Assembly: GCF_022539665.2 (NCBI RefSeq) | Contig: NC_081331.1 | Location: 11,160,001 to 11,224,000 of the forward strand | Length of the DNA stretch: 64,000 nt | Direction: 5' to 3' | DNA from: Daphnia carinata | Taxonomy: Eukaryota | Part shown: positions 3,651 to 57,580 of the stretch, piece by piece | Position numbering within the stretch: position 1 is the first letter of the stretch | How the letters are laid out: each line of letters begins with the position of its first letter | Program-made: the position numbers and the translations under genes | The notes under the pieces: model-generated | What the model saw: only the letters and a program-made list of their open reading frames with translations | Told to the model about the DNA's origin: nothing | The model's database searches: none

Positions 3651-4000
3651 AAGGTAATATAGTGAACAAATTGCTCGACTATTTTATCTGGCTAAGCAAA
3701 ACGAGAAACAAGATTAATCTGACAATTAAGATTAATTTAAAACAACGATTTCTTTCTATCAGCTTACCCGAAAAGCCTTATCTTTTTCAGATTTCACCTC
3801 TGTATCTAGAGCACGTACAGTTGATGTGAAACCCCTGAACAAGAGGTATTCTTTTACCAATTCATCCATTTGCTGAACGCACGACATTTTTCATTACTCC
3901 TACAAAACATCGAACATAAACATTTGGTTTCTGACATCTTACGGCAACAATAAGCGCAGTGCGTGTAAACTGTGGAAATACGAAGAGGAAGGATAAAATG

Positions 4001-6520
4001 TATGGCAATCCGTTTTACCAAAACAAAACAAAAAAAAATATCGCATTTTTTTTTCTTTTTTCTCCCTTAGCCATCTACGTCGTCTTGGTAACTACATAAA
4101 TTCGTAATGGTAGCAGCTAGTTAGGACGACGGCAGCTAGCACACACACACAGACAGCAGCAGTTAATAGTTATGGATAGGCTTGACGGTACTGGCGCGCT
4201 AGCATTCTGTCAAATATTCGGTGTAATTTTGTTGTTTGATACTTCAACACATTAAAATAATTCGAAAAAATCCTACATATTGAATCGAATATCTCTTTTA
4301 TTATCAGGTTTCATTATTTTATTAACCTAGATACTCGTTCATGAAATGTAAATTAAATTCGATGACAGCTGAAGAATCGCAACATCAAATTCTTGTATGT
4401 CATACATTTCGTAACGTTCATCCCTCTTCAAGAACTCATAAAAGTGTTTTTGAATTTTTTTTTATTGATTTTCAGGCAATGATTGAAAAAGTCAATAACT
4501 CATCAATGACCACACAAGTTTACGCGAGTGGCGAATTCCTGTTTGGATTTGGGTTTCCCATGCCGCAGAAGAAGGGGAAAGAGTAAACTGGCAACAATGT
4601 AGATCTAAACTCCTTCTCCTGGGTTTTGGCACACAGCAGTCCGAACTTTCTTATTTTGTTACGTTTCCTTCATTAAATAACTAATTGTCGGATTCGCATT
4701 TTACCGTCAATTAGCTTTCACTATTCCTTTTGGTATGTACCAAACAGTGTAAGACAAGGAACTTAAAGGTTGGTGTGCAACAGAGGTTAAAACATTTTGA
4801 AGCATATTGTTTGGATATCTTAAGTGATAGTGATGGGAGCTCCGTTATTTTATTCAGATTCGTAACATCATCAGTTTAATAAATTTTTAAAAGGCTACAT
4901 TCAATTTCTGTAAGAGTGTTCAATGGGAAATACTTCATTTTATGTTTCACTAGGAAAAAAGATGGAAGACTTGTAAATGAAATGCCAAAGTGCTCTCTTG
5001 CAATGCCAAGTAAACCATGAATTGACAGTTCCATGTTAAATTTAATCTATACTTCAACCTTAAACAAACAAATTGTTTTAATCTGTTCAGGTTTCAAGAA
5101 TTAACGTGCTCAACCACATTGCTCTACTGTAAAATGACCAGATACTGCTTTGGTTGCCCATGCCAGTATTTCTCTAGTAAAACACTCTTATGTGAGCTTA
5201 ACGTAAAATTAATCAGCAAAATGTTTTATTACGACACATTTTCTTTCTTTTCATAGCTGAATGGTTGTAGTGAATTTGAAAAGGATTCTCATTGCGGCCA
5301 GCCATCCCAGATTTAAGAAAGGTTGGCAGCAAAGGTGTCAATTTTCATGATTCGTCAATCACATTCCAAGTTGAGGTAGGGGTGTGTTTCTTATTAAATT
5401 TATATTGACTTGATGATGAGTGAAATGATTGCCTAATTACAAATGGCAGCTTGTCTGCAAGTTTACTTTAAACATAACACTTTCACGTACATTTGACACA
5501 GCCAATATTATCCTTATTTGTTCTTAGTTTGCTATTTGGTTGTCTAATTGGAATTTTAGTTTTTGAATGAGATTCAGGGTTGATGTTGCCGGTGTTACAT
5601 TAAAGGATTAAGTTCTTATTCACTAACATTTCAAGGACCAATGTCTTCTTAAAATTTACTTGTAAGTAAAAATGAAGCTTTTATATAATTATGTATTATC
5701 TATGTAACTCTTTCCTATTCAATAGGAAAGGATTTAGTTCATTCTGTGAACATATCTACCAACGATGCAAGCTCCGATGGGACGTATCGTATATTGTGCG
5801 TGTATATATCAAGTCTGTTATGATTTGCAGTATCTCTTCCGAAGCTTCTCTCAGAAGAATATGCTAAGCAATCAACTCACGAATCATATAAGGTACGAAA
5901 TATATATATGAAATCAAGAATTTTTATGCTTAATGGAGTTTTATTGTCTTTTTGTAGAATAATAATAAATTTTAATCTGAAAAGGTTCCTTGTTTGGGGC
6001 AAGGTACTGAATAAAGTATTATGATTGGATACACTACATGGAATTTCCATACTTTATTCACGTTCTCATTTAAAACCGGTATTTAATATTTAAAAAATTC
6101 AAGTGCATATCTGGGCTCCCTTCCTTTCCGTAGCCCCGTTTCCCCTTGACTCATAATAAGCCCGTAGGGGGTCATGCCCCTACTGTACGGTATATATAAA
6201 AAAAACATACACCGAGGTTTGGAGGGCTCTGGCCGGAAAGGGGACGTGGGGGTCCGCTTAGTCCGATGAAGTGTTCATGGAGGGCTCTGTGGCTACCCAC
6301 AAATCCGAATTAAAGGTTAATCGCTCCTGTAAAAATGTTCCATTTCTTCGGCTCTTCTTCCGGCTTCTCTTAGCCAAGCACCGGGTAATCTCCCCGGTGG
6401 GTCAACCAAGGCAGTGTCTCCCCCTGCCTTGGTTGGCGGCAACTTTTGAAAGGGTTGTTTTCCCTTTCGAAAGTTGCAAAATCATTTACGTGTGCAGAGT
6501 AATGTCAATACAATTTTTTT
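4001..6520 (+). mobile_element. Solo type-B arm: same terminus and GC-rich module, different interior
   Basis: Starts TATGGCAATCCGTTTTACC + poly(A) + TCGCATTTT + TAGCCATCTA. Ends in a diverged GC-rich module (~6085-6520). The interior has short intron-like GT..AG segments and a last-exon peptide IIINFNLKRFLVW resembling type-A LIVTLHLKKFLVG. Confidence 0.7.
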
Positions 6521-6544
6521 TATTTAAAAAAAAGCAAGCATATA

Positions 6545-7045
6545 TCTTTTTTACTTTTGTCAAAATCGGAAAAAATCGAAATCTCTCGGATTGCGAAGAA
6601 AATCCCACCGTATAACCCAATTTTAACGCTGATTCAGAAAAAGCCATTTGTTTTTATCTCATGTAAGCCGTTTTTGAAATAATCGTCATTTAAAGATAAA
6701 GTCGGGCTTATTTTTTTAGACCCAACTTCCCCGTTTTTTACGTTTTATTCAAAAACTATGAGTCCCACGAGAAAACAACTCTCATATTCGTGATGCTTGT
6801 TCAATTCTGCATCGAAACCATGTATTTAAAGCGAAATCTAAAATTTTGCCAAAATTGAATAAGTAAGAAGGCCTTCTCACTTTTCCAATTTTCTTCAAAT
6901 CCTAGATTTCAAGAAAAATACACTATTCCGATTTGAAATTGATCGCTGATCACAAAAATGGGGCATATTTTTATATCAGGCCTCTAGTTTTTAAATTAAC
7001 CGTAAAAAACAGAAAGTCGGGCTTATTTAGTCGGGCTTAAAATTT
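6545..7045 (+). repeat. AT-rich dispersed repeat with internal subrepeats (TTTTGTCAAAATCGG.., AACGCTGA.., GTCGGGCTTA)
   Basis: The same motifs recur in the same orientation at 49230-50110 and 55123-55860. Confidence 0.7.
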
Positions 7046-7149
7046 TTATCGGTCAGTGTATGTAGAGAATTAATTAGAAACGTGACCGTTAGATGGCGAT
7101 AGCAGTAAAACAGAAAAAAAAGGCCCATATTTTTTATTTTTATTTTGGG

Positions 7150-7199
7150 TAAAACGGATTGCATATATGGCAATCCGTTTTATATGGCAATCCGTTTTA
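7150..7199. other. End-to-end junction of element termini: 13 bp inverted repeats around a 7 bp spacer, plus a third 13-mer
   Basis: TAAAACGGATTGC-ATATATG-GCAATCCGTTTTA-TATG-GCAATCCGTTTTA read directly. Confidence 0.8.
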
Positions 7200-9430
7200 C
7201 ATAAAAAAAAAAAAAATAAAAAATCGCACTTTTTTCTTTTTTTCCGACACGTAGCCATCTACCGCTCAGACTCATTATTACTGGCGTAGGCAATTTCAGT
7301 CCATTGGATGCCATTCGCAGTTAGTTCAGTAGCGTGGATGGAGGATAACGCGTGGCTGGAGGAACAATTGAAAAATGGATAAGATAATACAACAAAAGGA
7401 TGATAAGTATAAACATTATTCTATTTGTTTTGAATTATTAATTATTGTTTATTAGATCAAATTATGGACCTGCAGGCTCAATTATTGCAACAGCACAAAA
7501 TATTAGATAACAGCAAAGCTAAGGATGGTAAGGCCTAATACATAATGATTCTATTTATTTGCTTTTATTGATTTGTGTTTTGTAGCTCAAAGTTTGAGTC
7601 TACAAGCTCAGCTAGGGGAAAAGAACAAATTGGAACGGAACAGTTTCCAAACAGTGAAGGAGGTTTTTCCAAACTCAAACCTGACTGAACATGAGGATGA
7701 ATTGGCATTAGGCGAACACAGTCAGGTACCTAAACTTTTCAAATAAGAATTCAAAATAAGTATAGAATTTTAACAAACAATTATTTATTGTTTAGTTATT
7801 CAGTCTACCACCTGACAGTGTGTTAAATTTAAATTCTGTTAGTGCTGCACAAAAAGAATCGTTAGTAATCAGCCCATGCAGTGAAGGAAGTGAACAATTG
7901 TGGGACCGTATTTGGGCCAAAAATGGGTGTGGTATGGAAACCAAGATATGGCACAAGTTCAACATGAAACATGGATTAGGTACTTTTCGGTTTTATGTCT
8001 ATTGAAAAAGTATTTTTAATGCTATTATTTTGCATTCACAGTATTTAATGGGGGATCAAATCAAGTCTGGAAGTGTTACAGGATGGAAGAGTCAGCCTAC
8101 AGATGAAAAAACACTGAGAGTGCATTACCATTAAGGTATGAGGTAAAGTAATAGAGTATGCAAATTGTCTAATGAGAAGTACCATCTTGTGTTAATGAAT
8201 CCAGTACAACAGCAATCCTTTATAGTTCTGTCACAGCTAGAAACCTCAAATAATTCTGCTTCTCTGTCTAAAGAACAACTTGTCCTTTACGTTCAGAGTG
8301 TTGGGGAAACTGGGTACTTAAATGGCCCTAAAGATGTTTTAATTTTGCTGCCATTGCAGAGATGAACATCATACATGGACTCTTTAGGTATGAAAGGATT
8401 TTTCTTCAAATAATTTTGAATTTATGACGAAGCATTTCTCCTCCTTTTTGCCAACCAGGTCTAATCTACCAAAAAAAATTTTATCCAAAAGGAAAGGATT
8501 TTCATGTACTGGGAACACAACTATCAACAATGCAACATTGTACAGGTGCTAGTTTATCATTCAAGAGCCTTATACAATGATGTTAATCTGCAATTTGTAT
8601 GTCCTTCCCCAAGCTTCCACCAGAAGTTGAATCTGAGTCATGTAAGTTACATGATCAACAGTTGATATGTTTAACGGTGTTGTTTTTCTTTTCTCAATAT
8701 AGGTTAATAGTAACATTGCATCTGAAAAAATTCTTGGTTGGGGCAAGACACTGAATAAATTGTATTGATTGGATGGATGACATGACATTTCTATACTTAA
8801 TTCGGATTCCCCAGACGGTATTTGATATTAAAAAAATTGAAGTGCATATCTGGGCTCCCTTCTTTTCTGAAGCCCCGTTTCCCCTTGACTCGTAATAAGC
8901 CCGTAGGGGGTCATGCCCCTACTGTACGGTATATATAAAAATAACATATACCGAGGTTTGGAGGGCTCTGGCCGGAAAGGGGACGTGGGGTGCCGCTTAG
9001 TCCGATGATGTGTTCACGGAGGGCGATGTGGCTACCCACAAATCCGAACTAAAGGTTAATCGCTCCTGTAAAAATGTTCCAAATCTTCAGCTCTTCTTCC
9101 GGCTTCTCTTAGCCAATCACCGGGTAATCTCCCCGGTGGGTCAACAAGGCAGTGTCTCCCCCTGCCTGGGTTGACGGCAACTTTTGAAAGGGCTATTGTG
9201 CCTTTTTAAAGTTGCAAAAATAATTGTAATGTGCAGAGAATTGTCAATAAAATTTTTTTATAAAATATTTTTTGCAAAATTTGTTTCTTTCATTGTCTGT
9301 GTTAGCTGTGTTCACACATTACATTTATCAACTTTTTTTTTTTTGTTTTGCTTTATTTATTTTTGTGACCTGTGATGGTAAGCATTGTTTCCATTGGTTT
9401 ATCGTTTATCTGTAAGCATTCAATTATTAT

Positions 9431-9487
9431 CCAGGGATCGAACCCTGGATGTTCGGCGTACCGCGCCGATGCTCTACCAGTGAGCCA
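9431..9487 (-). pseudogene. tRNA-derived cassette 1 (GGT anticodon loop)
   Basis: Identical to 2079-2135; A box TGGCTCACTGG, B box GGTTCGATCCC. Confidence 0.75.
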
Positions 9488-9610
9488 TGAATCATATGAT
9501 GACAAGTTGGCTTTTTTCTAGTCACTTGTGGACTTGCATTTACACTTAGAATAAAACTGAAATGCAATTCTGCAACATACTCTTCTACCTTTATTCTACT
9601 TCATTTTAAC

Positions 9611-9681
9611 ACATCTAGTAAGGTTTGAACCCAGGGTAACAGTTATCGCAGCTGAATGCTCTACCACAGAGCTATGGACAT
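9611..9681 (-). pseudogene. tRNA-derived cassette 2 (degenerate)
   Basis: Reverse complement ATGTCCA-TAGCTCTGTGGTAGAGC...CTGGGTTCAAACCTTAC-TAGATGT. A and B boxes and a partial acceptor stem are present; the anticodon arm is poorly paired. Confidence 0.6.
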
Positions 9682-9784
9682 TATAAAAGCAATACAAAGA
9701 TAAACATATAGTTGTGAAAGACTGCATAAACATCCTAGACGATAACATATGATATGCGATAATAAAAATTTTATATATATCTCG

Positions 9785-9840
9785 TGGCTCAATGTTAGAG
9801 CATCGGCGTTGCACGCTGAATGTCTGAGGATCGATTCCCA
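9785..9840 (+). pseudogene. tRNA-derived cassette 3 (TGC, Ala-like anticodon loop)
   Basis: TGGCTCAATGTTAGAGC-A-TCGGC-GTTGCAC-GCTGA-ATGTCTGAGGATCGATTCCCA; B-box variant GGATCGATTCC. Confidence 0.7.
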
Positions 9841-11139
9841 TGCCAGTAAAACAATATACAAATAAAAAATTACTTCAGAAAATATCAAGGTATTACACGT
9901 TGTTCCTTGTCTAAGTTCATGAATTCAAAAAGTGTAATAAATAATAATTGAATACTTACAGATAAACGATACAACGGTGGCAAAAACAATAAAATTGAAT
10001 TGCGCTAGCTGAATAAAAAAAAAAGTTGATAAATGTAATGTGTGAACACAGACAATGAAAAAAAACAAATTTTGCAAAAATATTTTATAAAAAAAAAATT
10101 ATTGACAATTCTCTGCACATTACAATTATTTTTGCAACTTTAAAAAGGCACAATAGCCCTTTCAAAAGTTGCCGTCAACCCAGGCAGGGGAGACACTGCC
10201 TTGTTGACCCACCGGGGAGATTACCGGTGATTGGCTAAGAGAAGCCGGAAGAAGAGCTGAAGATTTGGAACATTTTTACAGGAGCGATTAACCTTTAGTT
10301 CGGATTTGTGGGTAGCCACATCGCCCTCCGTGAACACATCATCGGACTAAGCGGCACCCCACGTCCCCTTTCCGGCCAGAGCCCTCCAAACCTCGGTATA
10401 TGTTGTTTTTATATATACCGTACAGTAGGGGCATGACCCCCTACGGGCTTATTACGAGTCAAGGGGAAACGGGGCTACGGAAAGGAAGGGAGCCCAGATA
10501 TGCACTTCAATTTTTAAATAATTAATACCGTAATACGCGGGAATACACAGGCGACTGATGGAGGGAAATTCAATTCCGTACTTCAAATTATTATAACTTT
10601 TCGTTATCACATCCCAACCAGAAACCTTCGCAGGTTCACTATTGCTATTAATCTAAATTAAGAAAATAAAACATAGATAAGCATGAGACGTTCTTATTGA
10701 TATCGCTTACATGGTACATAAATTCATCATCTGCCATATTCCTGTAGATTCCTGGCAGGAGGTTCTAAAAGGCTATGCAGTTGCAAATGATCACCATAGC
10801 CAAAACTTGAATACGAAAGTTTTGGGAGAACCTTTCGTGTTGGCCACAGAGACCTTACATGGGCTTTCCGATTGGACGTTCCATGCACCTTAAAAAAAAA
10901 AAAAAGAAAGGTTACATAGTGGTTGTTTTGATCACTAAACGTGAAGGTAAAGAAGGTACATGGTCTCGGCAGTCTTGACGACAATTTCCATTATAACCTC
11001 ATATCACCTCATTTTATGGGAAAAGAATTTCGTAGGCGACGGTTCAGAATAGAAAATGGTTGCATTCAAATCTTTTGGCAGGTGGGAATAAGGCATGTCG
11101 CCTTAGGGAGTGCAAACCGCGATTTTCAAAACTATTAAA

Positions 11140-11995
11140 TGCTTGTTAGCCATTGAAAGATTGCTGGCTGACGCAGACAATCGTTTGGGACATGATTAAT
11201 GAGCTGCTTCGTGGATAAAGCTCGTTTTTTTAGTCCTCTCCAGGATGACATGAATTCCAGCATCTTCTACACATGTATCAGCACTTTGCGATACACCAAT
11301 TAAAACAATTTAAAAATTTAAAATAGTACCACCTTTTAATGTTTTTGACTCCATGATTCATCTTCGATGCAATTGTGAAGGCAAGACAACTGACCTATGG
11401 TGATTTATTCATCACACTTGCCATAACCGTTTTCCCAATGTATCAGCTATTCTGCCAACAGTAGTTTACTAATACAACATTGACGATTAAAATTAGAAAA
11501 CTAAACAAACTCAGCAGAAAAGCATTACCAGGGAGTAACATCTTGCATGTTGAAGAAGAATCCTTGGTTTATCATGTACATGGCAGAATATCCACATTGC
11601 CTGGATGGCGCAATCCTTTGCATAATCACACAAATAGTAACTAAAACATACTGAATTGAAACAAAATTTAAATGAAGTTTTACCCAACAGCCGCCTGCAC
11701 CTCTGAATTCCAAAACTACGTCTACACATTCATATCAAGCTTTTCCAGCATGTCTCACCTTTGGCATTTGTTTAAATCATTCCTTCAAAAATTTTTAATA
11801 AATGTAAATAAAGTAAACAATTGATATTTATGTGACGTCGGAGTACCATTTGGCTATCAAGCATTCCATACAAGATAGGCATTTTGAAGAATCAGTGGCA
11901 GCAATCAAGTGCTACAATTTGAATATGGGCTAGGTGTTATAGTCGCTGAGGGCTCTCAATCCCTAAACTGAACCTTGCTCACTGATGTGACAATC
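11140..11995 (-). pseudogene. Decayed intron-containing Crypton-like (DUF3504/ZMYM-type) tyrosine recombinase
   Basis: Minus-strand exon fragments in canonical order: EQG/SLGIESPQRL (11980-11940), DYAKDCAIQAMWIF..RILLQ (11640-11530), CW..YIGKTVMASVMNK..KMNHGVK (11460-11340), EDAGIHVILERTKK/RALST (11267-11210). Contains stops and frameshifts. The whole arm-Y gene spans roughly 10590-12185. Confidence 0.5.
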
Positions 11996-12245
11996 TATAA
12001 AAGGATTTAAATCTTAATTAATGAGACATGCAGGATACTGTATAAAATTCTAGTAAAGATGGTACCAAATGCTGAGTTACTAGAAATTTTGCCTGGGAAA
12101 TCTCCAACTGACCATGTGAAACATAAGTCAGCTGTACTGCATTTGCAAATCCATTGTTCAAGTAACCAAATCCAATCCATGTCTGAAGGAATGAATGAGA
12201 AAATTAAATAGGAATCTGGCCGCTAGATGGCCATAGCTGTAAAAA

Positions 12246-12523
12246 GGTCTAAAATGAATAATTTTTATTGCAATGAATAGCCCTTAATAAGGGCTTTCGA
12301 TTTCTCTAAAATTTAAAGCAGGATTTCAATAACAAAAAAAAATTCATATATCTTTTTCAGAGTTTTTGCGATCCAAAGATATAGTGGATCCATACGGTAA
12401 AACAAAACAAAATGCTTTCGTTCTCAATTTTTTTGTTTTGGAAAATTCTACTTTAAATTTTAGAGAAATCGAAAGCCCTTATTAAGGGCTATTCATTGCA
12501 ATAAAAATTATTCATTTTTGACC
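12246..12523. mobile_element. MITE-like hairpin with a near-perfect ~70 bp terminal inverted repeat
   Basis: GGTCTAAAATGAATAATTTTTATTGCAATGAATAGCCCTTAATAAGGGCTTTCGATTTCTCTAAAATTTAAAG (12246-12318) is inverted at 12451-12523. No clear TSD. Confidence 0.7.
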
Positions 12524-14139
12524 CATAGTTTGCCCGTTAATAAAATTTTTTTTCGATGGTTTATAGGGGGAGGGGAAAACTACGGAAAATTGTAAACTTT
12601 GGGCCTTTCGTTCGGGTATTTGGGATGAATATTATGTATATTAAGTATAATATTTAGATTCCTTGTAATACCTGGAATGTTTTAGTGTGTATTAAACAAT
12701 AAAATGTGTCAAATCAGTTGGACAAATTCTAAATTATTAACGGCCAATCATATTAGAGACGACAGAAGCCATTATTTTTAGGCGGGTTTTTTTAATTTTA
12801 AATGGTTATGGATGTAATAAAAATACCAAAACAGTTTTACTATTATATGTTAGTCTTGTGGTGTACCGTGTCGATATTACAATAAAAAAAACAGAAATTA
12901 TTTTCATTCGGTTTATTTTTCATATTCTTTTACATTCAATTATTAAATAATTAATGGTTACTACATGAAACATCATCACTTTCATTTCCTTAGCTGTTGC
13001 CTTTCATGATACCTATATTGTTTGTATCCTTATTTACACGAAACTGTAAATGTAAAAAATAAATTTAAGATGACTTCTGTTAATAAAAATATGCCTGATT
13101 CAAATTACCTGTAACAGTTTCGATCTGTGTTCCACCACTATCTGGGATTGCAGACGTTGCCCAGCAATTAAGTCTTCTTCATAAATGTTATTTAATTCTT
13201 TTAACAGACATGTTCCTACAGAAATATAATTGTTTAGTTAAAATTTATCAATAATTCATGAATTTATTTACCTACTGAAAGCTCTAAGGGACTGATCTTC
13301 TGTTCGACTCCAGCTATCAGACAGATCAGGATAGTACCTCATTGTTAGATTGAGATAGGCTAACACTGTCTTCTACTACTGAGCAATCAAACTTAGGAAG
13401 TTGATATGATGCTCCAGCATGTTTTTCCTTTGTGGATTAAGAACTATTTTAAAAGGATAGATAAAAAATCAAATGTTATTGCTGCGAACCCAGCACTAGC
13501 CTGTTAAGATCTTTTATACCTTTTCTGTAATTTCTTTCTCCCTGAAATGTCTTCCTTTTTCCTTTCTTCCACGCACACTGCCGCTCAGTTTTCCTTTTTT
13601 TTTTTTTAATTTTGTGAATAATCTTGGATCTATTTTGAAATTTGACACTAGCAGACGATTTGACGCAGACGACACTTCAACAGCTGAGATGTAGCTTGGT
13701 TTCAGTGGTGGTGTGTACTGCAGTCACAGTGGGAGAGCCAATCAAATTGCGAGAATCGAGTGCCGCTTACAACCCGAACGGTCGAATCAACTCGCGGAGA
13801 CCATGTTGCATACGGTACAGCATAATCGCCACACCAACGCCATCGGGTATCTACAAGATAAAAGCAATCTTGACACTAGAGCCTTGGTGGAATCCACGTA
13901 ACAGGTTCTATTTACTTTCCCAGTATTTCGTGTTTCCGCTCTATCAATAGAAATTTACAGTCAACATCTCATAGAGGGATCTCAGTTGTAATTGATTTAA
14001 CAAGCTGTTTTTTCCTGCTGTCGTTAAACGGCGAAGGTACTTTCTTTGCTCGGTTATTGATATTATTACAGTCTAAAAGTTATTTTCTTATTAGTTAACG
14101 TCAAACATAAGTCGAGACACTATCGTCCTGAGTGATAGT

Positions 14140-15878: not shown

Positions 15879-17039
15879 ACAAGGCAAGACACCTGTGTCT
15901 TGGCGAAATAGTATCTGTTGGTGTGGAAAAGTACTAGCTTGTGTCATTGTTCTGTGTTCATTTGATATGCTGTAGTTTGGCTTGTCTGAGCTGTTGTAAA
16001 GACGTGTTACTCGCACATCATACTTGGACTAAACGTATTATAAACTATATTTACGTGTAAACATCGTTTCCACTAAATTACGTTGACGTTACAATAGCTG
16101 TGTAGGATTTACCACAAGCACGGATTTACAAACCCTGTTTTACATCCCATGTAAGGTAATGAAGTGAAGAATTTTAACATACATTCGGATTCTGCGTTTC
16201 GAAGAAAAGACGAAAAAGCATGCAACATTGTTGATTTGCAAAGCTTAATACTCGCAAGTGCTGCCTTCGACTAGCATGGCTTTCCGCCTAAGAAACTATG
16301 TGAAAAGTGATTATTTGGCATAAAACGTTGGAAATTGATAACTTTAGAAAGCCCTTTTTGGTCACCATTGTTGCAACGCTACTACCGAAAAGGGAAAACC
16401 AGCTAAAGGGCACGATCGCATAACATAGAACATCGGGCGACTCATTGAATCAAGAGGCTTTATGGGTCAACAGAATAACAATGGCCGACTTCAACATGTA
16501 AATCCTATTAACATAAAAACGGGATGAGATCTTGCAAAGGTAAAAGACCACAATAGACAATAAATAAACATATCTGAAGGCTTTACGCGTTCCAACGCCG
16601 AACAATGCTCCAATGTTTAAAATTCCAGGTTACACATAGCTTACAAAACGTACTCAAATGAAAGTCCGTCTTCCGCATTTTCGGTAAATATTGGTAGATT
16701 TAGTGTGGGAAAAATGACAAGTCATCTGTACTCTAGGTGAAAGAAAAAAGAAACCAATTTTTCAGTAGAATCCAGGAAATGTTTGGAAGTGAGATAAGTC
16801 GGCCGTCATATACCTATCAACAACGCTGTGAACACATCAATTAGCTCGAACACCATGGTGAAAGGGCGCGACATTGAACCAATCAGTTCCATTCTTCTCG
16901 ATGCTATAGGCAAGCAAACATCTGAACGAGGGAGTCATCGAGCCTCGGATAGTCTTTTCCTCCACACCCACTGGGCGCATTGATGGCAACTGCCTGACAG
17001 CCTGACGAGTTTGCTTTCAACATTGTGAAGCGGTACGAG

Positions 17040-19053
17040 ATGGTTCGAAGCGAAGGACTGCTGTTTTCCCTGGTGTTTTTAGTCACACATCTAACTGGAA
17101 GTGAACATCAGACTAATGGCGCAAACCATCAACTGGCTGACGGATTTCAATCTTTCTTCAAGACTAGATACAAATCGTGGCTACAAGTGTTAGACGGAAC
17201 AAATTTAAAAAAATATACTACTGGCGGCAATGAACTGACAACTGTAGATGCAGTGACAGCACAAAAGAAAATAAACAATTTAGTGTTAACAAGTCCTAAT
17301 ATAGAAGGTTCGATCGGTCCCATCAAAGCTCTCCGCGTACCTTATTTTTTACGTTTCGGAAAAAATGCGCAAGAAGACAGACAAGCAAATAGCCTTACCT
17401 GCACATGCGAACCGACGCCAACTTGTTCAACCACTTGCACGTCACTCGAGATACGGTGTGGACGAACATGTACACACAGCACAATTTTCACGGCTGAATG
17501 TGGATGCCACGGAGGACGCCACCAAGCTACGTCCACAAGTTCAAGCGTTAGCAGCAATGGCTGTGCCACATTAAATGCTGGATGTCTCGCAACGGTCGGA
17601 GCTGTTGGTGCTGTTGGAGCTGTTGTAGCAGCTGCTGCAGCAGTGGCAGTGGCTGTCGCTGTTGCGGTTCCAGTAGGCCTCCAGTTATCCGGAGTGGGTC
17701 CGTCTGAAACAGAACGATTCGATCCACAAGTTTTAGATATCGGCGACATTTTTGGCCAACGAACACCTGTAAACAACCTTACATTTCCTGTGAACGGAAA
17801 TGATTTCCCAGCTGATGGTTGCGGAGACAATTCAGTGAGATTCAGTGACGGAAATTGCTATCCAGTTTTGACGAGAGGTCCTTGTGCCGATCCTCACCGA
17901 TGGGTTACTCTAGATCCTGCGACAATCCAAGTATCACACACAAATCACATACAGAATATGGAAACGTCAATACTTTAAAGTGGTTCATTTCAGGCACGTT
18001 GCAGTCCACGTCTCTGTGGTCGCCAAAGAGTATTCGTTGGTCAAGATGGACTTTGTCACGACATCAACGATCCATCTGGATGTAGCGGTGGCCGACGTCT
18101 TTATTACACAGCTTACGGGGACCCACTCTGTGACTGCCCTATCGGGCAATATCCTTTTCCGGACATTCAAGACGATTGCGTTCCACTGTTCTCGAAAGGT
18201 AATCACAAAATCCTGCTACTTTCCTTGTTATGTCTGAAAGCTTGGCAGCAAACATCGATGCATCACGATCAGGCGAAACATACGTTTTCATGCCGATTCT
18301 TTTCTAACTTTTACAAGGTCCCTGTCCCGATGGGAATGTAGTTTCCATTACTCCGGAGGGTCGATTGGGCTGTACGCCAGAGGAATGTCAATCAATCGAT
18401 GGTCAAGATAACTCTTTGCAGTTAGTGTCTACTGGGAGTGGAGTTTGTTACCCTCTCGGTTCACGCGGACCCTGTACAAATACTTCTCAGTTGCTGGGAT
18501 ACGATGTGTTTAGGCGACGTTTGCAGTGCGTCAATATTCTAGACCCTTCTTCGCCTTATTTCTCTTCGCCAGAAGAAGAAGATTTAATAGATAGCGTCTA
18601 CAACCAGTTTGTCGCGGAATACGATGACTATCAGATCTCACTCATCTATCAAAATGCAGTGGAAAGAAAGGACAAAGGCCAACGCAGACAAGGTGGAAAT
18701 ACCGCAGGAGCACTTCAATTTCCTAGCTCGTCTCCTGATGCTCTCTTACAGCCATGTCGGAATGGTGCTCGAGAAGGAATAAATTTTAAGTGCACCAATC
18801 CGCTAGTGTAAGACAATGACACAATTAAAAAGTGGAAATACTGGCTGTTAAAATTTTTGATTTCGCTTCTTTTAGGTCAAATTCAAACGCGAGGCCAGTA
18901 CAACCAGCAGTTAGTTCCGCATTTAAGTGTCCAGGGAATGGAAATTTACAAGCTACGGGTCAATGCGCGAGCGACAACCGTGCTGCTAGCTGTGGACCTT
19001 CGTTTCAGTTTAATTCAAATACTGGACAATGCCGCAGTGTTTTCAGACGTTAA
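17040..19053 (+). CDS. Secreted/membrane Cys-rich DUF4789-like repeat protein, paralog 1 (4 exons)
   Basis: Signal-like N terminus. Repeated CYPxxxRGPC / [10 protein letters not shown]..CVPLFxxGPC modules. Exons ~17040-17930, 17994-18198, 18318-18808, 18876-19053. Clearly paralogous to 21848-23536 and 56204-57580. Confidence 0.8.
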
Positions 19054-20641: not shown

Positions 20642-23600
20642 TTAGCCGTCTAGTTGACCGCATTCGTAAGCGTTCTGGTAGCTCTGCGTATTCTTGTCTT
20701 CCGAATCAAGCTTAATCATATCATCAATACGCAGAATGGTAATAGCCGCTTCAGTAGCAAACTTCAGAGACTTAATCTTGGAAACAGCAGGCTCAAAGAC
20801 ACCAGCTTGTCGGTTGTCCCTAACGGCACCTTCCATCAAGTCCAACCCGATCCTTGACAAACGAGAAAGATATAACAATAATTCTTAACAGCGCTAATAA
20901 AACATTATTTACCATTTCAAATTAGCGTGCTCAGGCTTTGACTGCGATGAGTGATGGTAAGAACGCATTTTAGCCACGAGATCAGTCGCGTCCTTGGCTG
21001 CGTTGACTGCTAAGGTCTTGGGAATGACCAATAGCGAATGGGCGAATTCTGCAATCGCTAGCTGTTCTCGAGAGCTCTGTATGTCATAAAGTATTATTAC
21101 AATAATTTAACTTATTTTCCTTTGAAAATGTGTCAACTTACCAATGATGTAGCGAAGCTTTCCAAATAAATAGAGAGTGCAACCTCCACAGCGCCGCCAC
21201 CGACGACTAGAGTTTTGGATTCTAGAACGCGTTTGACGACGCAAAGGGCATCGTGCACCGAGCGTTCCATTTCGTCGCAGTAGAAGTCATTAGGACCACG
21301 CAGAATAATGGAAGCAGCTGTGCGCGCTTTGGTTCTACGTTGAAGGAAATGGAAGACGTGAAAAATTACAAATGTTTCTGGAAAGCCATAAACTAGAATT
21401 CTTCACAATGCCATAATGCTACGGCTGCTTAGAGCAAAGACAGGCTTGCACGGAAATTCAAATTCGGTCAGCTTATATGGTACTATGCACATTCCAAATA
21501 GTATGGGTAACAGACGAAACAAAACTGCACCTCTAGTCAACAAAAAGAAGGCTCATCATTCGCTTAAGGCTGGAGAGGAAAAGAAGGTCACCATCCCATT
21601 CTGAAAATCTAAGATTATTTCTACATGTTGAACTGCGTTCTGAAAGACGAGCCTCGGGCTTATATCCGACAAAGTAAGCTCTATACGGTATTTTTTTTTT
21701 TTGTGGGACTTCCGCACATGAGGACCTCCTTTCTAGAAGATGGCTAAAGCAGAAGGTACAACATACCTTCTTTGTTTCTCTTATGCATACAGGCACTATA
21801 ATCTAGTCTCACAGTGGCAGCCGGCTCGGTTAAAAGCATAACATAAGATGCAGTGCAACAAGAGACTACTTTTCCTGTTCTCGGTATCTATTCTTGGCTT
21901 TGGTGATCAACAAAGTCATGCACTGGATCCTAATGTGAGAAGATCGTGGATACGAGAGCTCGCGACACGCGTGAAAGCTAAAAAGGGTATCTACGAGAGT
22001 GAAACAACCCCTTTTTCGGGAAAAAACGAACATCAGTACCACAATGAACACCCAACTGCGGAGGCAGCTTTGGTGACTATGGAAACAACGCAGGAATTTT
22101 CTAAGAGTTTTGGCTTCGGAGCTATCAGAACACAGCACAGGCAAAATACGTATCCTTACCAAACGCAAACTACGTATCCTTACCCAACGACAACCCTCCC
22201 ACGGTTACCCACGGTCCCTTCTGTTGCAATAGCACTTGGAGCTATAGCGATCGCAATCGCAGTAGGCGTTGCTACCACACATAGTACGGAAAAACAAATA
22301 GACGAAATCGATCTCGTCATCAGGCAATTTGACAATCAAACCCCTATAAATGAGTGTCCGATGCCTGTATTTGGAAACGATTTTCCGCGCGATGGCTGTG
22401 AAGATAACGCCGTACGAGTAGCAAATGGAAAGTGCTTCCCCGTTCTGACACGAGGCCCTTGTGAAAATAACCGTCATTGGATAACGATTGATCCCATTAC
22501 ATTAAAGGTAAATGAAGAGCAATTGTTTGAATAAAAGAATTGAATTTTCCATGGAAGGAATGGTCAATTTCAGGGAAGATGCACTCCAAGACTTTGTGGT
22601 CGAGAAAGAGTACTGGTGGTACGGGACGGACTTTGTCACGACGTCAACGATCCGAACGAATGTCAAGGTGGGCGGCGTCTTTATTATACAGCTTACGGAG
22701 ATCCGATATGTGATTGCCCCATTGGGCAATATCCTTTCCCTAACCCTCACGACAACTGCGTCCCACTTTTTACCCAAGGTATTCATTCAATCGTTACACG
22801 AAAGTACAACATAACAAAGATTTATAATAAGTCAACTTTCATCCACTATGCTCTGCATAAAGGACCTTGCCAAAATGGATACGTAGTAACAATTGGTGAA
22901 CAGGGTCGACTTGGCTGTACTCCAACCAAATGTGAATCAATCGACAATGACAACTTGTCCCGGCAGCTTGTGCCGGCCAACGATGGCGTATGCTACGCCC
23001 TTGGGTCACGTGGACCCTGCGCCACTACATCTCAGCTCTTAGGTTACGATATCTTCAAGCGCCGTGATCATTGTGTCGATATTCTAAACCCCTCCTCGCC
23101 CTATTTTTCTTGGCCCGCACAAGACGATTTTCTTGATAGCATCTACAATCAGCTCCATCCGGAATATGACGAATTTAGAGTATCCTTTGTTTACGAAAGT
23201 CTAACGGGGAAGAACGAAACACAACAACGAAGACAAGGTGCGAGCACAATAGGAGCAATCCAATTTCCTAGCACGTCAATTGGAAGTCTTTTACATCCTT
23301 GTCGCACTGGAGCTCGACGAGGAATAAATTTTAAATGCACCAATCCTTTAGTGTAAATCAATAACATTTTATATCTAAAACAACGCAACGGAATATTTAA
23401 TCCTATCTCTTTTTTTTGTAGGCCTACACTAAGGACAATGCAGCTCTTGCAAGTTGTTCGACCTGGATTGAGAACAAACTGCGAAGGCAACGCTTTGTTT
23501 GTCGCTGCCACTGGCCAGTGCCGAGCCAGGTTCTAACCCATGAACTAACAATAACGCTCAAAATGTTTCTAACAGATAGCTTTTAACAAGATGTCTCGCA

Positions 23601-48755: not shown

Positions 48756-49229
48756 GGTAGTTTACGAACTTCAAAGGTGTGGAACAGAATGCCAAATACA
48801 TCGCAAAAAAATTTGCATTTTTCGTTACTCCAGAAGAAATTCTCTATACTGTGATCAGCAACCGAACAAAAAAAGCCCACTTTCTCTTTGTAGTTCAAAT
48901 CTTAAAATATTAAGGCTTCCTTCGAAGCAAAATGCCCTTCTTGTCTTTTTGTTATTTTTCCTTTACTGGTTGAAAAACATTTATGAATAAACAAGAAATC
49001 TGTCGTCTTGTTTTCACCGGTGGAATTTCACGAATGCAACAGACAAAAATTTAAGTTCGATATACATTTGGTTATCTTAAATGTTGCGGAACCCATTCTT
49101 CCATGTATGATGTATCAGAAGGAATCCTTAGCACGATTCTGGATCCACAACACACATTACAGCTCTTGGAATGCAATAAAAGTAAAGAAGTGAATGATGA
49201 AGTGTTGTTAGTGCCCTCAAACTTAATTT

Positions 49230-50110
49230 TTGGTTTTATACGTTTAATTAAAAAACTATAAGACCCATTGGAAAATGAACTTGATTTCCGTGATTTTCAT
49301 TCAATTTTGAATCGAAATCATGTATTTCAAGTGATATTTAAATTTTGACCAAAAATCAAAAAGTGGGAAGGCTATGGCCTTCCTTCTTTTGTCAAAATCC
49401 GCAAAAAATGAAAACCCCTAGAAACCGATAAAGATCACACTGCACGACTCAAATCAAACGCTGAATTCGATCGAATGGTTTATTTTCTCGTCAAACCAAC
49501 TGTTTTTTGCAATAAACGGAAACAAAATGCTGGTATGGCACATATTTAGGTTTGTTGTTTTTTACGATTTATTAAAAAACTATAAGCCGTAGAAAAAAAT
49601 AGACGAAAAAATATGTGATTTGCATTTAATTTTGAAGCTAAATCATGTATTTTTATAGCTATACCTAGATGTTTCGAAAAAAATTAAATAGGCGATAAGG
49701 CCGGGCTTATTTTGTCGGGCTTAATTTTTAGTACGGCAGAAATTCAGTCTTGTAATTTTGACATTAAATTTGATTTAAATTAATCTAAAATAAAGCGTTG
49801 ATTTCAGGAAAAATATTTGTTTTCTCGTCAAGCCAGCCGTTTGTGTAATAAATGAAATTAACGCGAATCTGGCGCGCCAGCAATTATCGTCCGGTAGCTC
49901 CATATAGCCTTACCACTTTTGTCAACATCGGCCAAAAACGGCATCTCTTGAAATTGAAAAAATCACACGACATAATCAGAATTGAACGCTGACTTTGATT
50001 AAGTGATTTTTTTTCTCAGCCGATTTTGAAATAAAAGGAACAACGGGCTTTCGGCGCACCAACTTTATGTTCTGGTTTTTACATTTTTAAAAATAAATGT
50101 AAGCCTAATG
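49230..50110 (+). repeat. AT-rich repeat, left flank of the foldback element
   Basis: Shares subrepeats with 6545-7045 and 55123-55860 (GAAGGCTATxGCCTTCCTxCTTTTGTCAAAATC, GTCGGGCTTA). Confidence 0.7.
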
Positions 50111-52450
50111 GAATATGGCAATCCTTTTTATATGGCAATCCGTTTTACATAAAAAAAAAAAAAAAATCACACTTTTTTCTCTTTTTTCTACCCGTAGCCA
50201 TCTACCAGTCGGTTTCGTTATTATAGGCATGTAAGCAATTTGAGTTAATTGTATCCCATTAGCAGTTAATTGAGTAGCGTGGCTGGAGAAAAACTCGTGG
50301 CTGGAGGAACAATTGAAAAATGGATAAGATAATACAACAAAAGGATGGTAAGTATAAAGATTATTATATTGGTTTTCAATTATTAATTATTGTTTATTAG
50401 ATCAAATTATGAAGCTGCAGGCCCAATTATTGGAACAACACAAAATATTGGATAACAGCAATGCTAAGGATGGTAAGGCCTAATACGTAATGATTCTATT
50501 TATTTGCTTTTATTCATTTGTGTTTTGTAGCTCAAATTTTGAGTCTACAAGCTCAGCTAGGGGAAAAGAACAAATTGGAACGGAACAGTTTCCAAACAGT
50601 GAAGGAGGTTTTTCCAAACTCAAACCTAACTGAACGTGAGGATGAATTGGCATTAGGCCTAAACTTTTCAAATAAGAATTCAAAATAAGTATAGAATTTT
50701 AACAAACAATTATTTATTGTTTAGTTATTCAGTCTACCACCTGACAGTGTGTTAAAGTTAAATTCTGTTAGTGGTGCACTAAAAGAATTGTTAGTAATAA
50801 GTCCATGCAGCGAAGGAAGTGAACAATTGTGGGACCGTATTTGGGCTGAAAATGGGTGTGGTACGGAAACCCAGAAATAGCACGAGTTCAACATAAAACA
50901 TGAATTAGGTACTTTTCGGTTTTTTGTCTATCAAAAGAGTATTTTTAATGCTATTATTTTGCATTCACAGAATTTTAGTGGGGGATCAAGTCAAGTCTCG
51001 AAGTGTAACAGGATGGAAGAGTGAGCCTACAGTTGAAAAACACTGAAAGTGCATTACCATTAAGGTATGAGGTAAAGTAATAGAGTATGCAAATTGTCTA
51101 ATGAGAAGTACCATCTTGTGTGAATGAATCCTGTGTAACAACAATCCTTTATAGTTCTGTTATAGCTAGAAGCCTCAAATAATTCTGCTTCTCTTGCTAA
51201 AGAACAACTTGTCCTTTACACTCAGAGTGTTGGTGAAGCTGGGTACTTAAATGGCCCTAAAGATGTTTCACTTCACTGGCATTGCAGCGATGAACATCAT
51301 ACATGGACTCTTTAGGTATGAAAGGAATTTTCTTGAAAAATTTTTGAATTTATGATGAAGCTTTTCTCCTCCTTTTTGCCAACCATGTCTAATCTACAAA
51401 AAAAAAATTATCCAATAGGAAAGGATTTTCAGCATACTGGGAACACAACTATCAACAATGCAACATTCTAGGGGTGTTATTTTATCCTTCAAGAGCCTTA
51501 TACAATGATTTTCATCTACAATTTGTATGGCCTTTCCCGAGCTTCTGCCAGAAGTTGAATCTATGAGTCATGTAAGTCACATGAGCAACAATTGAGATGC
51601 TTAATGGTGTTGTTTTTCTTTTCTCAGTGTAGGTTAATAGTAACATTGGATCTGAAAAAATTCTTGGTTGGGGCAAGACACTGAATAAATTGTTGTAATG
51701 ATTGGATGGATGACATGATATTTCTATACTTCATTCGGATTCCCGAGACGGTATTTGATATTTAAAAAATTGAAGTGCATATCTGGGCTCCCTTCCTTTC
51801 CGTAGCCCCGTTTCCCCTTGACTCGTAATAAGCCCGTAGGGGGTCATGCCCCTACTGTACGGTATATATAAAAACAACATATACCGAGGTTTGGAGGGCT
51901 CTGGCCGGAAAGGGGACGTGGGGTGCCGCTTCGTCCGATGATGTGTTCACGGAGGGTGACGTGGCTGCCCACAAATCCGAACTAAAGGTTAATCGCTCCT
52001 GTAAAAATGTTCCAAATCTTCAGCTCTTCTTCCGGCTTCTCTTAGCCAATCACCGGGTAATCTCCCCGGTGGGTCAACAAGGCAGTGTCTCCCCCTGCCT
52101 GGGTTGACGGCAACTTTTGAAAGGGCTATTGTGCCTTTTTAAAGTTGCAAAAATAATTGTAATGTGCAGAGAATTGTCAATAAAATTTTTTTTATAAAAT
52201 ATTTTTTGCAAAATTCGTTTCTTTCATTGTCTGTATTCGCTGTGTTCACACGTTACACTTTTTATATTTAGCTTGCTTAATTCACCTTTATTGTTTTTGT
52301 CACCTTTGATGGTAAGCATTGTTTCCATTGGTTTATCGTTTATCTGTAAGTATTATTTATTACACTCTTTGAATTTGAGAGACTCTCTCTTGAGATTCAA
52401 GGAACAATCTGGATATTTTATGAAGTAATTTTGTATTTTGTTTTAATCGT

Positions 52451-52507
52451 ATGGGAACCGATCCCCAGACATTCAGCGTGCAACGCCGATGCTCTAACAT
52501 TGAGCCA
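52451..52507 (-). pseudogene. tRNA-derived cassette 3 (TGC)
   Basis: Reverse-complement homolog of 9785-9840. Confidence 0.7.
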
Positions 52508-52617
52508 CGAGATACATCTAAATATTTTATTATCGCATATCATATGTTATCGTCTAGGATGTTTATGCAGTCTTTCACAACTATATGTTTATCTTTCTTT
52601 TGCTTCCATAAGGTTCT

Positions 52618-52681
52618 TAGCTCTGTGGTAGAGCTTTTATCTGCGATACCTGTTACCCTGTGTTCAAACCTCAGTAGATGT
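52618..52681 (+). pseudogene. tRNA-derived cassette 2 (degenerate)
   Basis: TAGCTCTGTGGTAGAGC...GTGTTCAAACC; homolog of 9611-9681. Confidence 0.55.
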
Positions 52682-52805
52682 GTAAAAATGAAGTAGAATA
52701 ATGTAGAAGAGTATATTGCAGAATTGCATTTCAGTTTTATTCTAAGTGTAAATGCAAGTCCACAAGTGACTAGAAAAAAAAGCCAACTTAAAATCATATG
52801 ATTCG

Positions 52806-52862
52806 TGGCTCATTGGTAGAGCATCGGCGAGGTATGCCGAACATCCAGGGTTCGATCCCTGG
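52806..52862 (+). pseudogene. tRNA-derived cassette 1 (GGT)
   Basis: TGGCTCATTGGTAGAGC-A-TCGGC-GAGGTAT-GCCGA-ACATCCAGGGTTCGATCCCTGG. Confidence 0.75.
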
Positions 52863-55122
52863 ATAATAATAGAATGCTTACAGATAAACGATAAACCAAT
52901 ACCCGTCACCTTACCATCAAATGTGACAAAAACAAATAAAGCAAAGCCAAAAAAAAAAAATTGATAAATGCAATGTGTGAACAAAGCTAACACAGACAAT
53001 GAAAGAAACGAATTTTGCAAAAAATATTTTAGAAAAAAAATTTTATTGACAATTCTCTGCACATTACAATTATTTTTGCAACTTTAAAAAGGCACAATAG
53101 CCCTTTCAAAAGTTGCCGTCAACCCAGGCAGGGGGAGACACTGCCTTGTTGACCCACCGGGGAGATTACCCGGTGATTGGCTAAGAGAAGCCGGAAGAAG
53201 AGCTGAAGATTTGGAACATTTTTACAGGAGCGATTAACCTTTAGTTCGGATTTGTGGGCAGCCACGTCACCCTCCGTGAACACATCATCGGACGAAGCGG
53301 CACCCCACGTCCCCTTTCCGGCCAGAGCCCTCCAAACCTCGGTATATGTTGTTTTTATATATACCGTACAGTAGGGGCATGACCCCCTACGGGCTTATTA
53401 TGAGTCAAGGGGAAACAGGGCTTCAGAAAAGAAGGGAGCCCAGATATGCACTTCAATTTTTTTAATATCAAATACCGTCTGGGGAATCCGAATTAAGTAT
53501 AGCAATGTCATGTCATCCATCCAATCAATACAATTTATTCAGTGTCTTGCCCCAACCAAGAATCTTTTCAGATCCAATGTTACTATTAACCTATATTGAG
53601 AAAAGAAAAACAACACCGTTAAACACATCAATTGTTGATCATGGAACTTACATGACTCATAGATTCAACTTCTGGTGGAAGCTTGGGAAAGGACATACAA
53701 ATTGCAGATTAACTTCATTGTATAAGGCTCTTGAATGATAAACTAGCACCTGTAGAATGTTGCATTGTTGATAGTTGTGTTCCCAGTACATGAAAATCCT
53801 TTCCTATTGGATAAAATTTTTTTTGGTAGATAAGACCTGGTTGGCAAAAAGGAGGAGAAATTCTTCGTCATAAATTCAAAATTATTTGAAGAAAAATCCT
53901 TTCATACCTAAAGAGTCCATGTATGATGTTCATCTCTGCAATAGCAGCAAAATTAAAACATCTTTAGGGCCATTTAAGTACCCAGTTTCCCCAACACTCT
54001 GAACGTAAAGGACAAGTTGTTCTTTAGACAGAGAAGCAGAATTATTTGAGGCTTCTAGCTGTGACAGAACTATAAAGGATTGCTGTTGTACTGGATTCAT
54101 TAACACAAGATGGTACTTCTCATTAGGCAATTTGCATTACTCTATTAATTTACCTCACACCTTACGGTAATGCACTCTCAGTGTTTTTTCATCTGTAGGC
54201 TCACTCTTCCATCCTGTAACACTTCCAGACTTGATTTGATCCCCGTTAAAATCTGTGAATGCAAAATAATAGCATTAAAAATACTTTTTCGATAGACAAA
54301 AAACCGAAAAGTACCTAATCCATGTTTCATGTTGAACTTGTGCCATTTCTGGGTTTCTGAACCACACCCATTTTCGGCCCAAATACGTTCCCACAATTGT
54401 TCAGTTCCTTCACTGCATGAGCTTATTACTAACGATTCTTTTAGGGCAGCACTAACAGAATTTAAATTTAACACACTGTCATGTGGTGGACTGAATAACT
54501 AAGCAATAAATAACTGTTTTTTAAAATTCTATACTTATTTTGAATTCTTATTTGAAAACTTTAGGTACCTGGCTGTGTTCGCCTAATGCCAACTCATCCT
54601 CACGTTCAGTTAGAGATGAGTTTTGAAAAACCTCCTTCACTGTTTGGAAACTGTTCCGTTCCAATTTGTTCTTTTCCCCTAGCTGAGCTTGAAGACTCAA
54701 AATTTGAGCTACAAAACACGAATGAATAAAAGCAAATAAATAGAATCATTACGTGTTCGGCCTACGATCCTTAGCTTTGTTATCTAATATTTTGTGTTGT
54801 TCCAATAACTGGGCCTGCAGCTTCATAATTTGATCTAATAAACAATAATTAATAATTGAAAACCAATATAATAATGTTTATACTTACCATTTTTTTGTTT
54901 TATTATCTTATCCATTTTTCAATTGTTCCTCCAGCCACGCGTTGTTCTCCAGCCACGCTACTCAATTAACTGCTAATGGGATACAATTAACTGAAATTAC
55001 TTACATGCCTGTAATAACGAAACCGACTGATAGATGGCTACGGGTAGAAAAAAGAGAAAAAAGTGCGTTTTTTTTTTTTTCCGCCATTTTTTTTTTTTTT
55101 TTATGTAAAACGGATTGCCATA

Positions 55123-55860
55123 AAAAACGACATCTCTTGGAATTCGACAAAAATCCCAGAGTATAATCAAAATTTGACGCTGATTTCGATTCAGTGATTG
55201 GTTTTCTCATTAGAGCAGCCGTTGCAAAAATAGTTAGAAAACAAGATATATTTCTGCTGCATCACGCTAGCGCTGTAGCGTACTGGCGCGCTAGCATGGC
55301 GATACATATTCGATGTATTTCAAAAACAATTGACTTAATGAAAAAAATAGCAATTTTCCCACAATTAGCATTCAATTTTGCGTATATCCTGTAGTATTCA
55401 ATCAACTCTGATGAGTTTCAGTTTTTGCAGAAAAAAAATTTTAAGTCCGACTAAATAATAAGCCCGACTAAATAATAAGCCCAATTTTTTTTTATTTTTT
55501 CGTTTTTTACGTTTATTTTAGAAATCATGAGGCCAATTGGAAAATAAATTTGATTTTCGTAACCAGCACTCAATTCTCAATCGAAATCGTGTATTTTAAG
55601 TGAAATTTAGATTTTGGCCAAAAATGAAAAAGTGAGAAGGCTATAGCCTTCCTACTTTTGTCAAAATCGGACAAAAAAGACATGTCTTGAAATTCGACGA
55701 AAATCGCACAGTGTAATGAAAATTGAATGCTGATTACTATTCAGCTATTGGTTTTTTCATTAAACCAACCATTTAAAAAATAAAATAAAATAAAGAGATG
55801 TTAGCAACCCAACAAACCCACCAAAAACTCGAGCTTATTTTGTCGGACTTATTTTTTGAA
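55123..55860 (+). repeat. AT-rich repeat, right flank of the foldback element
   Basis: Same subrepeats and orientation as 49230-50110. Confidence 0.7.
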
Positions 55861-56203: not shown

Positions 56204-57580
56204 TCAATTAAAAGCGAGGTCGGCATGAATTTGTAGCTCTGTCGAATTGATAAGATGGTCCACAGCTGGCAGGACCTCTGTCGCTTCCACACTGCCCATT
56301 AGCTTGCAGGAAATCGTTCGGTCGGCAACCGAATCCAGGCCTAGACGGCCGATGGACATCACGTGTTGGTCTGCTCGGGCTGTAAACAAGAATTCAAAAT
56401 CAGATATTTTTGTTTCGAACAGAATGAAGGGCAAGAAGCTTACACCAAAGGATTTGTGCACTTGAAATTGTTTCCGTTACGATTGCCCAGTTGACAGGGA
56501 TTCAGCATAGATGTCGGGAATACACTGCTTTGTTGAACTATTCCAAAACTAGCTTGTCTCCGGTTCCTCGATAGCTGTTGACTTCGAAAAAATGTAACAC
56601 TCTTTTTTACGGGTTCTTCAGATGTGTGATTGTAGAGCTCGTCTAAAAGAGCATTTTCCTTTGATGAAGAAAAATACGGTGTCGTTGGATCCTCTATGTT
56701 GAGACACTGTCCTTCAGCCTGAAAGATATTGTAACCGAAGAGTTCAGAATACGAGCAAGGACCACGAGTTCCTAAAGCATAGCAGAAGCCATCATCATCA
56801 TCATCATAGCCTATGGTCCTCGATTCTTTAGCAGGCACGAGTTGCAGGAGAAAATCTTGATAGTATCTGTCAAGAGATGGACAAGTGTTGGAACCGCATT
56901 CCAATTTTCCCGACGAACTGACTGTCACCACTTTATCGTATGGACACGGTCCTGTAGAGAAATCGGTGCGAGAAATTAAAATCGAAATCCAACAAATGAT
57001 TTCGTCATGTTTTTGTACCTTGAGTAAACAAAGGAACGCAATCATCTTTATCCGAAGGGAAAGGATATTGTCCAATCGGACAATCGCATATTGGATCTCC
57101 GTAAGCTGAGTAATATAGACGTCGACCTCCCTGGCATTCGTACGTATCGTAGATATCGTGACAAAGCCCGTCGCGACCAACAAATACTCGTTCTCTGCCA
57201 CACAAGCGAGGAGTGCATTTTCCCTGAAAGTAGAACAGAAAAAATTGATTGATTGCACGTTTTATACATTAAGAATTTTCGGTTATCGAAAAAGTACCCA
57301 CCTCGTAGGTATACGGGTCGACCGTTACCCAGTACAGCAAACTTTTGCACGGTCCTTTTTTCAAAACAGGGTAACAATATCCGTCGTCCTTAAATCGAAC
57401 AGCGTAGTCTCCGCAACCATCATCAGGGAATGAAGCATTTGATGGCTTTTTGTTTTGGGGAATGCTTGCAGCATCATAAGTTGGATAACTATTATAAGAA
57501 GTTCCAGGGGAGCTGGGGTAGGTTGAATTGCTTGCCAATGCCAGTGAGAAAGCAGCCATAAATATCACTGCGGCAAACAT
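56204..57580 (-). CDS. Cys-rich DUF4789-like secreted protein, paralog 3 (4 exons)
   Basis: MFAAVIFMAAFSLALAS signal; [67 protein letters not shown]. Confidence 0.82.

Follow-up and report, generated by a model that had tools for sequence, protein, structure and literature searches.

A lox/FRT-like repeat in Daphnia carinata is the inverted-repeat end of one transposon copy set against the start of the next

Introduction

Is the inverted repeat at positions 7150-7182 of a Daphnia carinata contig a site for a tyrosine recombinase (YR), or the place where two transposon ends meet? The repeat lies in a window of 64,000 nucleotides (64 kb), which is the whole stretch of DNA analysed and to which all coordinates refer. 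In the initial annotation it was described as a lox/FRT-like site of 13+7+13 bases followed by a third direct 13-mer, a third repeat being a feature that FRT carries. A preserved circle junction and a tandem integration into the element's own end were proposed as its origin. YR sites are built of arms of 11-13 bases around 6-8 bases (PMC3212892).

The joint at 7150-7182

The letters and coordinates of the site were confirmed: TAAAACGGATTGC occupies 7150-7162, ATATATG follows at 7163-7169 and GCAATCCGTTTTA at 7170-7182, with a further GCAATCCGTTTTA at 7187-7199. The 13+7+13 pattern occurred once in the 64-kb window and in none of 100 shuffles, and no other inverted repeat with 13-base arms and a gap of 6-8 bases was found in the 64 kb.

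The 33 bases of 7150-7182 are the reverse complement of the 17-base terminus TATGGCAATCCGTTTTA followed by TATGGCAATCCGTTTTA itself, minus one C. Hence the right end of one copy (D-E) stops at 7165 and the next copy (B) begins at 7166, with a spacer of zero; the abutment of a reversed and a forward terminus, which the initial annotation had described, was borne out. Two TATGGCAATCCGTTTTA termini placed tip to tip make a perfect 34-base palindrome, and restoring the family tip at the joint gives 17+0+17. The apparent 7-base spacer consists of both terminal tips plus a G that is unpaired owing to the missing C, and exists only because that C is missing.

The 13+7+13 geometry, beyond chance as it is, follows automatically from the joining of two inverted termini. 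There is no separate core of 6-8 bases as a tyrosine-recombinase site requires, its place being taken by the two invariant terminal tips; the arms belong to the outer portion of terminal inverted repeats, imperfect and about 80 bases long, and the window yielded no recombinase. The lox/FRT-like look is therefore that of the inverted-repeat end of one transposon copy against the start of the next, a mostly ordinary arrangement. The feature exists, in an unclassified transposon family, but its reading as a site for a recombinase was mistaken; head-to-tail dimers of transposons are already known. Whenever two inverted termini meet tip to tip, lox/FRT is mimicked in this way, and one lost base produces a false spacer.

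Termini of the family and the doubled end

Besides the joint, the same terminus caps five more ends in the window. On the plus strand TATGGCAATCCGTTTTA starts at 4001, 7166, 7183, 50114 (one mismatch) and 50131, and on the minus strand at 55122; a minus-strand end at 7165, the seventh, is TATGGCAATCCGTTTTA less one G. The tip is TATGG at six of the seven ends and TATG-C at the seventh, and the family tips, TATGG..CCATA, are inverted and not direct; the family ends are denoted by the string TATGGCAATCC.

Left and right ends align, imperfectly, over about 80 bases that include the subterminal motif TAGATGGC. The left terminus of copy D-E (4001-4078, plus strand) carries the TATGG tip and subterminal GCCATCTA, and its right terminus (7083-7165, minus strand) is one C short of the family tip. 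The likeness previously noticed between the reversed terminus and 12218-12245 was supported: TAGATGGC is present at 7090 and 12224, and 7062-7125 aligns loosely with 12190-12245. The terminus-plus-subterminal pattern was found four times in the window and in none of 100 shuffles.

The third 13-mer is part of a 17-base stretch that is duplicated exactly and in tandem (7166-7182 and 7183-7199), in which the outer copy of the left terminus of B (7166-7182, plus strand) precedes the inner, complete left terminus (7183-7261, plus strand). At 50114-50147, in copy C, the doubled terminus does recur as the initial annotation stated; its outer copy there has one mismatch. Over the first 265 aligned columns the two arms of copy C share 24 sites, and B shares 7 with the left arm of C. 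A single origin, with the doubled terminus carried along by copies moving with the outer tip, is the simplest account, but B does not group with the left arm of C near the end. Two insertions made independently of each other, 17 bases within an older end, may also account for it.

Copies of the element and their genes

Self-comparison of the window revealed one repeat family in several copies: A, from the window start to 2167; D-E, at 4001-7165; B, from 7166, the right tip of which is missing near 12245; and C, at 50114-55122. Copy C consists of two left-type arms arranged as a foldback, with the doubled terminus on the left and a single terminus on the right. In B, the right-type subterminal segment (12190-12245, minus strand) lacks its tip and is followed, in place of the tip, by a 278-base palindromic element (12246-12523), the right edge of which reads TATGGG on the minus strand, a TAYGG-like tip. 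Promoter motifs were considered as the cause of the repeat and rejected, as the long shared arms point to a transposon.

The left arm of B contains a decayed spliced gene (7375 to about 8770, plus strand) with GT..AG joints at 7526-7585 and 8140-8203 and exon frames. A second decayed spliced gene, with minus-strand introns (approximately 10540-12200), converges on the first and is a distant paralogue of it, 54-56% alike in the last exons. Copy D-E carries a decayed spliced gene paralogous to that of B (approximately 4340-6000, plus strand; GT..AG joint 5191-5257), with last exons 66-67% alike to those of B and C. The last exons of the three gene versions are thus 54-67% alike. Over the exons compared, the genes of D-E and B are about 67% alike, which places the partners of the joint in different subfamilies; the joint is then unlikely to be the circle junction of a single element, an origin that had been proposed for it.

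A segment of about 550 bases 3' of each internal gene is 85-98% alike in all arms, though the genes have diverged (5913-6520, 8654-9259, 10083-10530, 51586-52195 and 53033-53639). These segments form an internal inverted repeat around a spacer. In B the central spacer spans 9430-9941, with the inverted repeat on either side (8684-9430 and 9941-10671), and holds tRNA-like units at 9432-9487 (minus strand) and 9784-9843 (plus strand) and a similar unit near 9620-9680. Rfam tRNA scores were 29.6 and 21.7 bits, and a search with ARAGORN found no tRNA gene. The central spacer of copy C has tRNA-like units too (52360-52870).

Pfam scans were performed on 118, 27 and 17 frames of the window. They identified host genes only, and no transposase or recombinase: the Armc9/CTLH-like N-terminus of a WDR91-like gene, saccharopine dehydrogenase, TCP-1, CCDC47 and DUF4789. 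The internal genes (left arm of B, minus-strand gene and D-E) had no Pfam match, and searches for their homologues gave no matches from 2 and from 2130 candidates. One match in 1.84 billion was obtained for the minus-strand gene, an unnamed 104-aa ENA singleton whose Atlas look-alikes were all below 0.8. The joint had no matches in viral contigs. Metagenome loci with the terminus and the subterminal motif (n=43) were discarded as chance matches, having no blastn similarity to the window.

Contigs from outside the window

Contigs of a second data set, X1, skip GT..AG introns, from which we infer that X1, though it bears the label 'DNA?', is derived from RNA. One of them reproduces 3768-4151 without a difference, and comparison of the letters thus suggests that X1 is probably from the same species as the window. 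The repeat family is expressed and multi-copy.

On 7060-7290, 222 X1 contigs were aligned; the following entry and exit points are those of the loose ends listed. After 7162 at least four contigs depart from the stretch; their consensus starts CATA and then runs into unlike flanks (agreement 0.65). At least seven enter at 7183, also with unlike flanks (agreement 0.48). Single contigs enter at 7165 and at 7180. In one contig 7162 is followed by CATATGCCATAA, in which the tip of a right end is briefly repeated. As the contigs exit and enter at the tips into varied flanks, the usual ends of the family are single TATGG..CCATA tips. Among the X1 contigs listed on 7060-7290 none bridges the joint.

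The contig matching 3768-4151 joins exons of the WDR91-like gene to the left terminus of D-E, so that this transposon end lies in the 5' region of a host transcript, to which it may supply an outward promoter. In other contigs, of 506 and 2012 bases, a right end lies near the start.

Assignment to a transposon family

IS3EU elements have TAYGG..CCRTA ends, inverted repeats of more than 30 bases and two opposed genes (PMC12730594), and TA..TA ends with 6-base target duplications (PMC10045372, including its supplementary alignment). GingerRoot (PMC6839031) and Styx (PMC10853768) were compared as IS3EU-type families. The structure and function of IS3EU have been described as largely unexplored (PMC11934779). 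The present family agrees with the TAYGG..CCRTA rule at six of seven window ends, the seventh being one G short, and the contig ends concur; its inverted repeats, imperfect over about 80 bases, exceed 30 bases; and two converging spliced genes lie inside the element. Kilobase size and the frequency of single ends are likewise shared with IS3EU and GingerRoot, and the opposite orientation of the two genes may be a further point of agreement (PMC12730594, PMC10045372, PMC6839031). The differences are the foldback copy C, the tRNA-like central spacer and the copies, in which no transposase was found; furthermore, fungal IS3EU elements carry a transposase and an alpha-kinase gene, whereas here the two genes are mutually paralogous.

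Neither D-E nor C is flanked by a 6-base target duplication. Both are rearranged, D-E abutting B and C being a foldback, and B has no right tip, which makes the missing duplication a weak test. No IS3-like DDE transposase was identified in the 64-kb window by Pfam or by motifs, and the copies may be non-autonomous; the IS3EU motif had no meaningful match in six frames. A minus-strand exon tried as the IS3EU catalytic-glutamate motif was rejected (4 of 13 residues, the glutamate absent). As no transposase, recombinase or 6-base duplication was found, membership in IS3EU is put no higher than likely; the basis for the family call is the five-base tip.

Cryptons, which are tyrosine-recombinase elements, are described as having no terminal inverted repeats and carrying direct repeats of 4-6 bases at both ends (PMC3212892). 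Most CryptonS have TATGG termini, in the form of direct repeats of 5-6 bases (PMC3212892, PMC13465315). The present family shares TATGG with CryptonS, and the superficial 13+7+13 geometry with YR sites (PMC3212892, PMC13465315). It differs from Cryptons in its inverted ends of about 80 bases, with TATGG inverted and not direct, in having no independent core, and in that no recombinase was found (PMC3212892). The search for a tyrosine recombinase (R-H-R-Y), confined to the window and its decayed genes, gave no Pfam match in stop-to-stop or read-through frames and no complete motif.

ISL2EU, raised in the initial annotation through its AT target duplication, has the target rule A|AT|T (PMC4482050) and was rejected: AT has T on its 5' side at all seven ends. 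GG just inside AT, two genes and an animal host are common to both; the T-flanked ends are not, and no Pfam match to THAP, DDE or YqaJ was found in the window frames, where the genes are decayed (PMC4482050). A possible resemblance to KDZ/Zisupton and Helentron was dropped for want of Pfam support. The family may already be catalogued.

Formation of the joint

The joint is gap-free and head-to-tail, between the right terminal inverted repeat of D-E (4001-7165) and the left terminus of B (from 7166). It probably belongs to an IS3EU-like DDE family and arose when B inserted into the tip of D-E. These ends would be recognised by a DDE transposase whose gene lies outside the window, and which placed copy B against the end of D-E; alternatively, both ends could be cut by the DDE enzyme and then joined by repair. 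The joining, or a later event, would have cost the C and any target duplication; an assembly error in a perfect palindrome could also explain why the C is missing. Of the origins proposed in the initial annotation, tandem integration into the element's own end stays a live model, and the end-to-end joint of family termini is real.

Dimers of DNA transposons are mostly head-to-tail, and in newly formed ones the target duplication still separates the ends (PMC5932611). P element and hobo dimers resemble the present joint, the right end of one copy lying beside the left end of another, with a small deletion at the joint; such deletions were reported in 24 of 36 hobo dimers (PMC5932611). Intact P and hobo dimers differ in having the 8-base target duplication between the ends, where here there is no spacer (PMC5932611). 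This counts against a plain double insertion, which predicts a target duplication between the ends.

The bacterial elements IS30 and IS911 insert beside their own ends and form left-right junctions (PMC9333248). In IS3/IS30 elements a DDE enzyme abuts right and left ends, also those of two separate copies, as here (PMC3299598, PMC9333248). The junctions of IS2 and IS30 keep 1-2 spacer bases, unlike the single example described here, which has none and has lost one tip base (PMC3299598, PMC9333248). An animal IS3EU-type transposon might have kept this bacterial end-attack, producing abutted right-left joints and doubled tips by strand transfer targeted to ends, and may move via an end-joined circle; we consider this improbable. 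If true, the joint would give the IS3EU superfamily its first genomic trace of such a pathway. Circles have been proposed for KolobokP, which is also a eukaryotic DDE group (PMC9587614). Among the papers listed, which did not include Repbase Reports and most subscription journals, no account of abutted-end joints in IS3EU came up. If the assignment is true, the gap-free joint would be a small clue to how this little-studied type of family moves. Should right-left joints without a gap, together with doubled tips, turn up repeatedly across the genome, end-targeting or circles made by a eukaryotic IS3-like transposase would become testable.

The absent 6-base duplication would be accounted for without any extra loss if the family had TG..CA ends and a TA target duplication, two copies having inserted at neighbouring TA with TATA left between them. 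TA does flank every end once the boundary is shifted in by two bases; this match is automatic from the TATGG tip and thus no test. We judge this account unlikely, as it requires a TATA target, the other flanks are not TA-rich and the five-base tip is exactly the published IS3EU signature (PMC12730594). Less probable still is a Crypton-like tyrosine-recombinase element whose joined ends preserve a lox/FRT-like site from a circle. The literal 13+7+13 geometry would fit, as would the arms of 11-13 around 6-8 bases and the TATGG termini of most CryptonS (PMC3212892), the lack of a target duplication at D-E or C, the internal genes without a family match and an off-frame HSLR motif at 11118 on the minus strand. 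Yet the spacer is made of the termini's own tips and is present only through the missing C, the TATGG of CryptonS forms direct repeats of 5-6 bases while here it is inverted within a repeat of about 80 bases (PMC3212892, PMC13465315), and the joint's partners come from different subfamilies. The HSLR motif has no GH..Y downstream in frame, and no recombinase matched in Pfam.

Very unlikely, too, is an assembly artefact in this repeat-rich region, be it the joint itself or the missing C. Perfect palindromes are difficult to sequence, the joint was unspanned among the X1 contigs listed, and the complete identity of 1-2167 with 7353-9519 can signal a collapsed or duplicated assembly. Against an artefact, the partners differ in sequence, each end is otherwise well formed, and the doubled terminus occurs independently in copy C with a mismatch of its own. 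The preferred reading is that B inserted into the tip of D-E or that repair joined two cut ends, either course being compatible with a single joint.

Surroundings of the copies

The window is AT-rich; its spliceosomal introns are short, and Pfam identifies ordinary host genes in it. The stretch 1-2167, which matches 7353-9519 at 100% identity, ends within the central spacer, and from 2168 the interior of the WDR91-like host gene follows. The identity indicates either that 7352 bases were recently duplicated in tandem or that the assembly is at fault.

Repeats of GTCGGGCTTA mark a second repeat family, which occurs around or inside the copies (6520-7058, 49220-50110 and 55123-55860), the fragment at 6520-7058 being nested in D-E. 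This second family meets the right end of copy C at a stretch of CGTTTT, similar to the doubled terminus. A spliced minus-strand transcript (12900-13700, intron 13043-13109) with no Pfam match is situated between copy B and the saccharopine dehydrogenase-like gene. Paralogues of the DUF4789 family form a small cluster at 17025-18811, 21848-23356 and 56440-57258.
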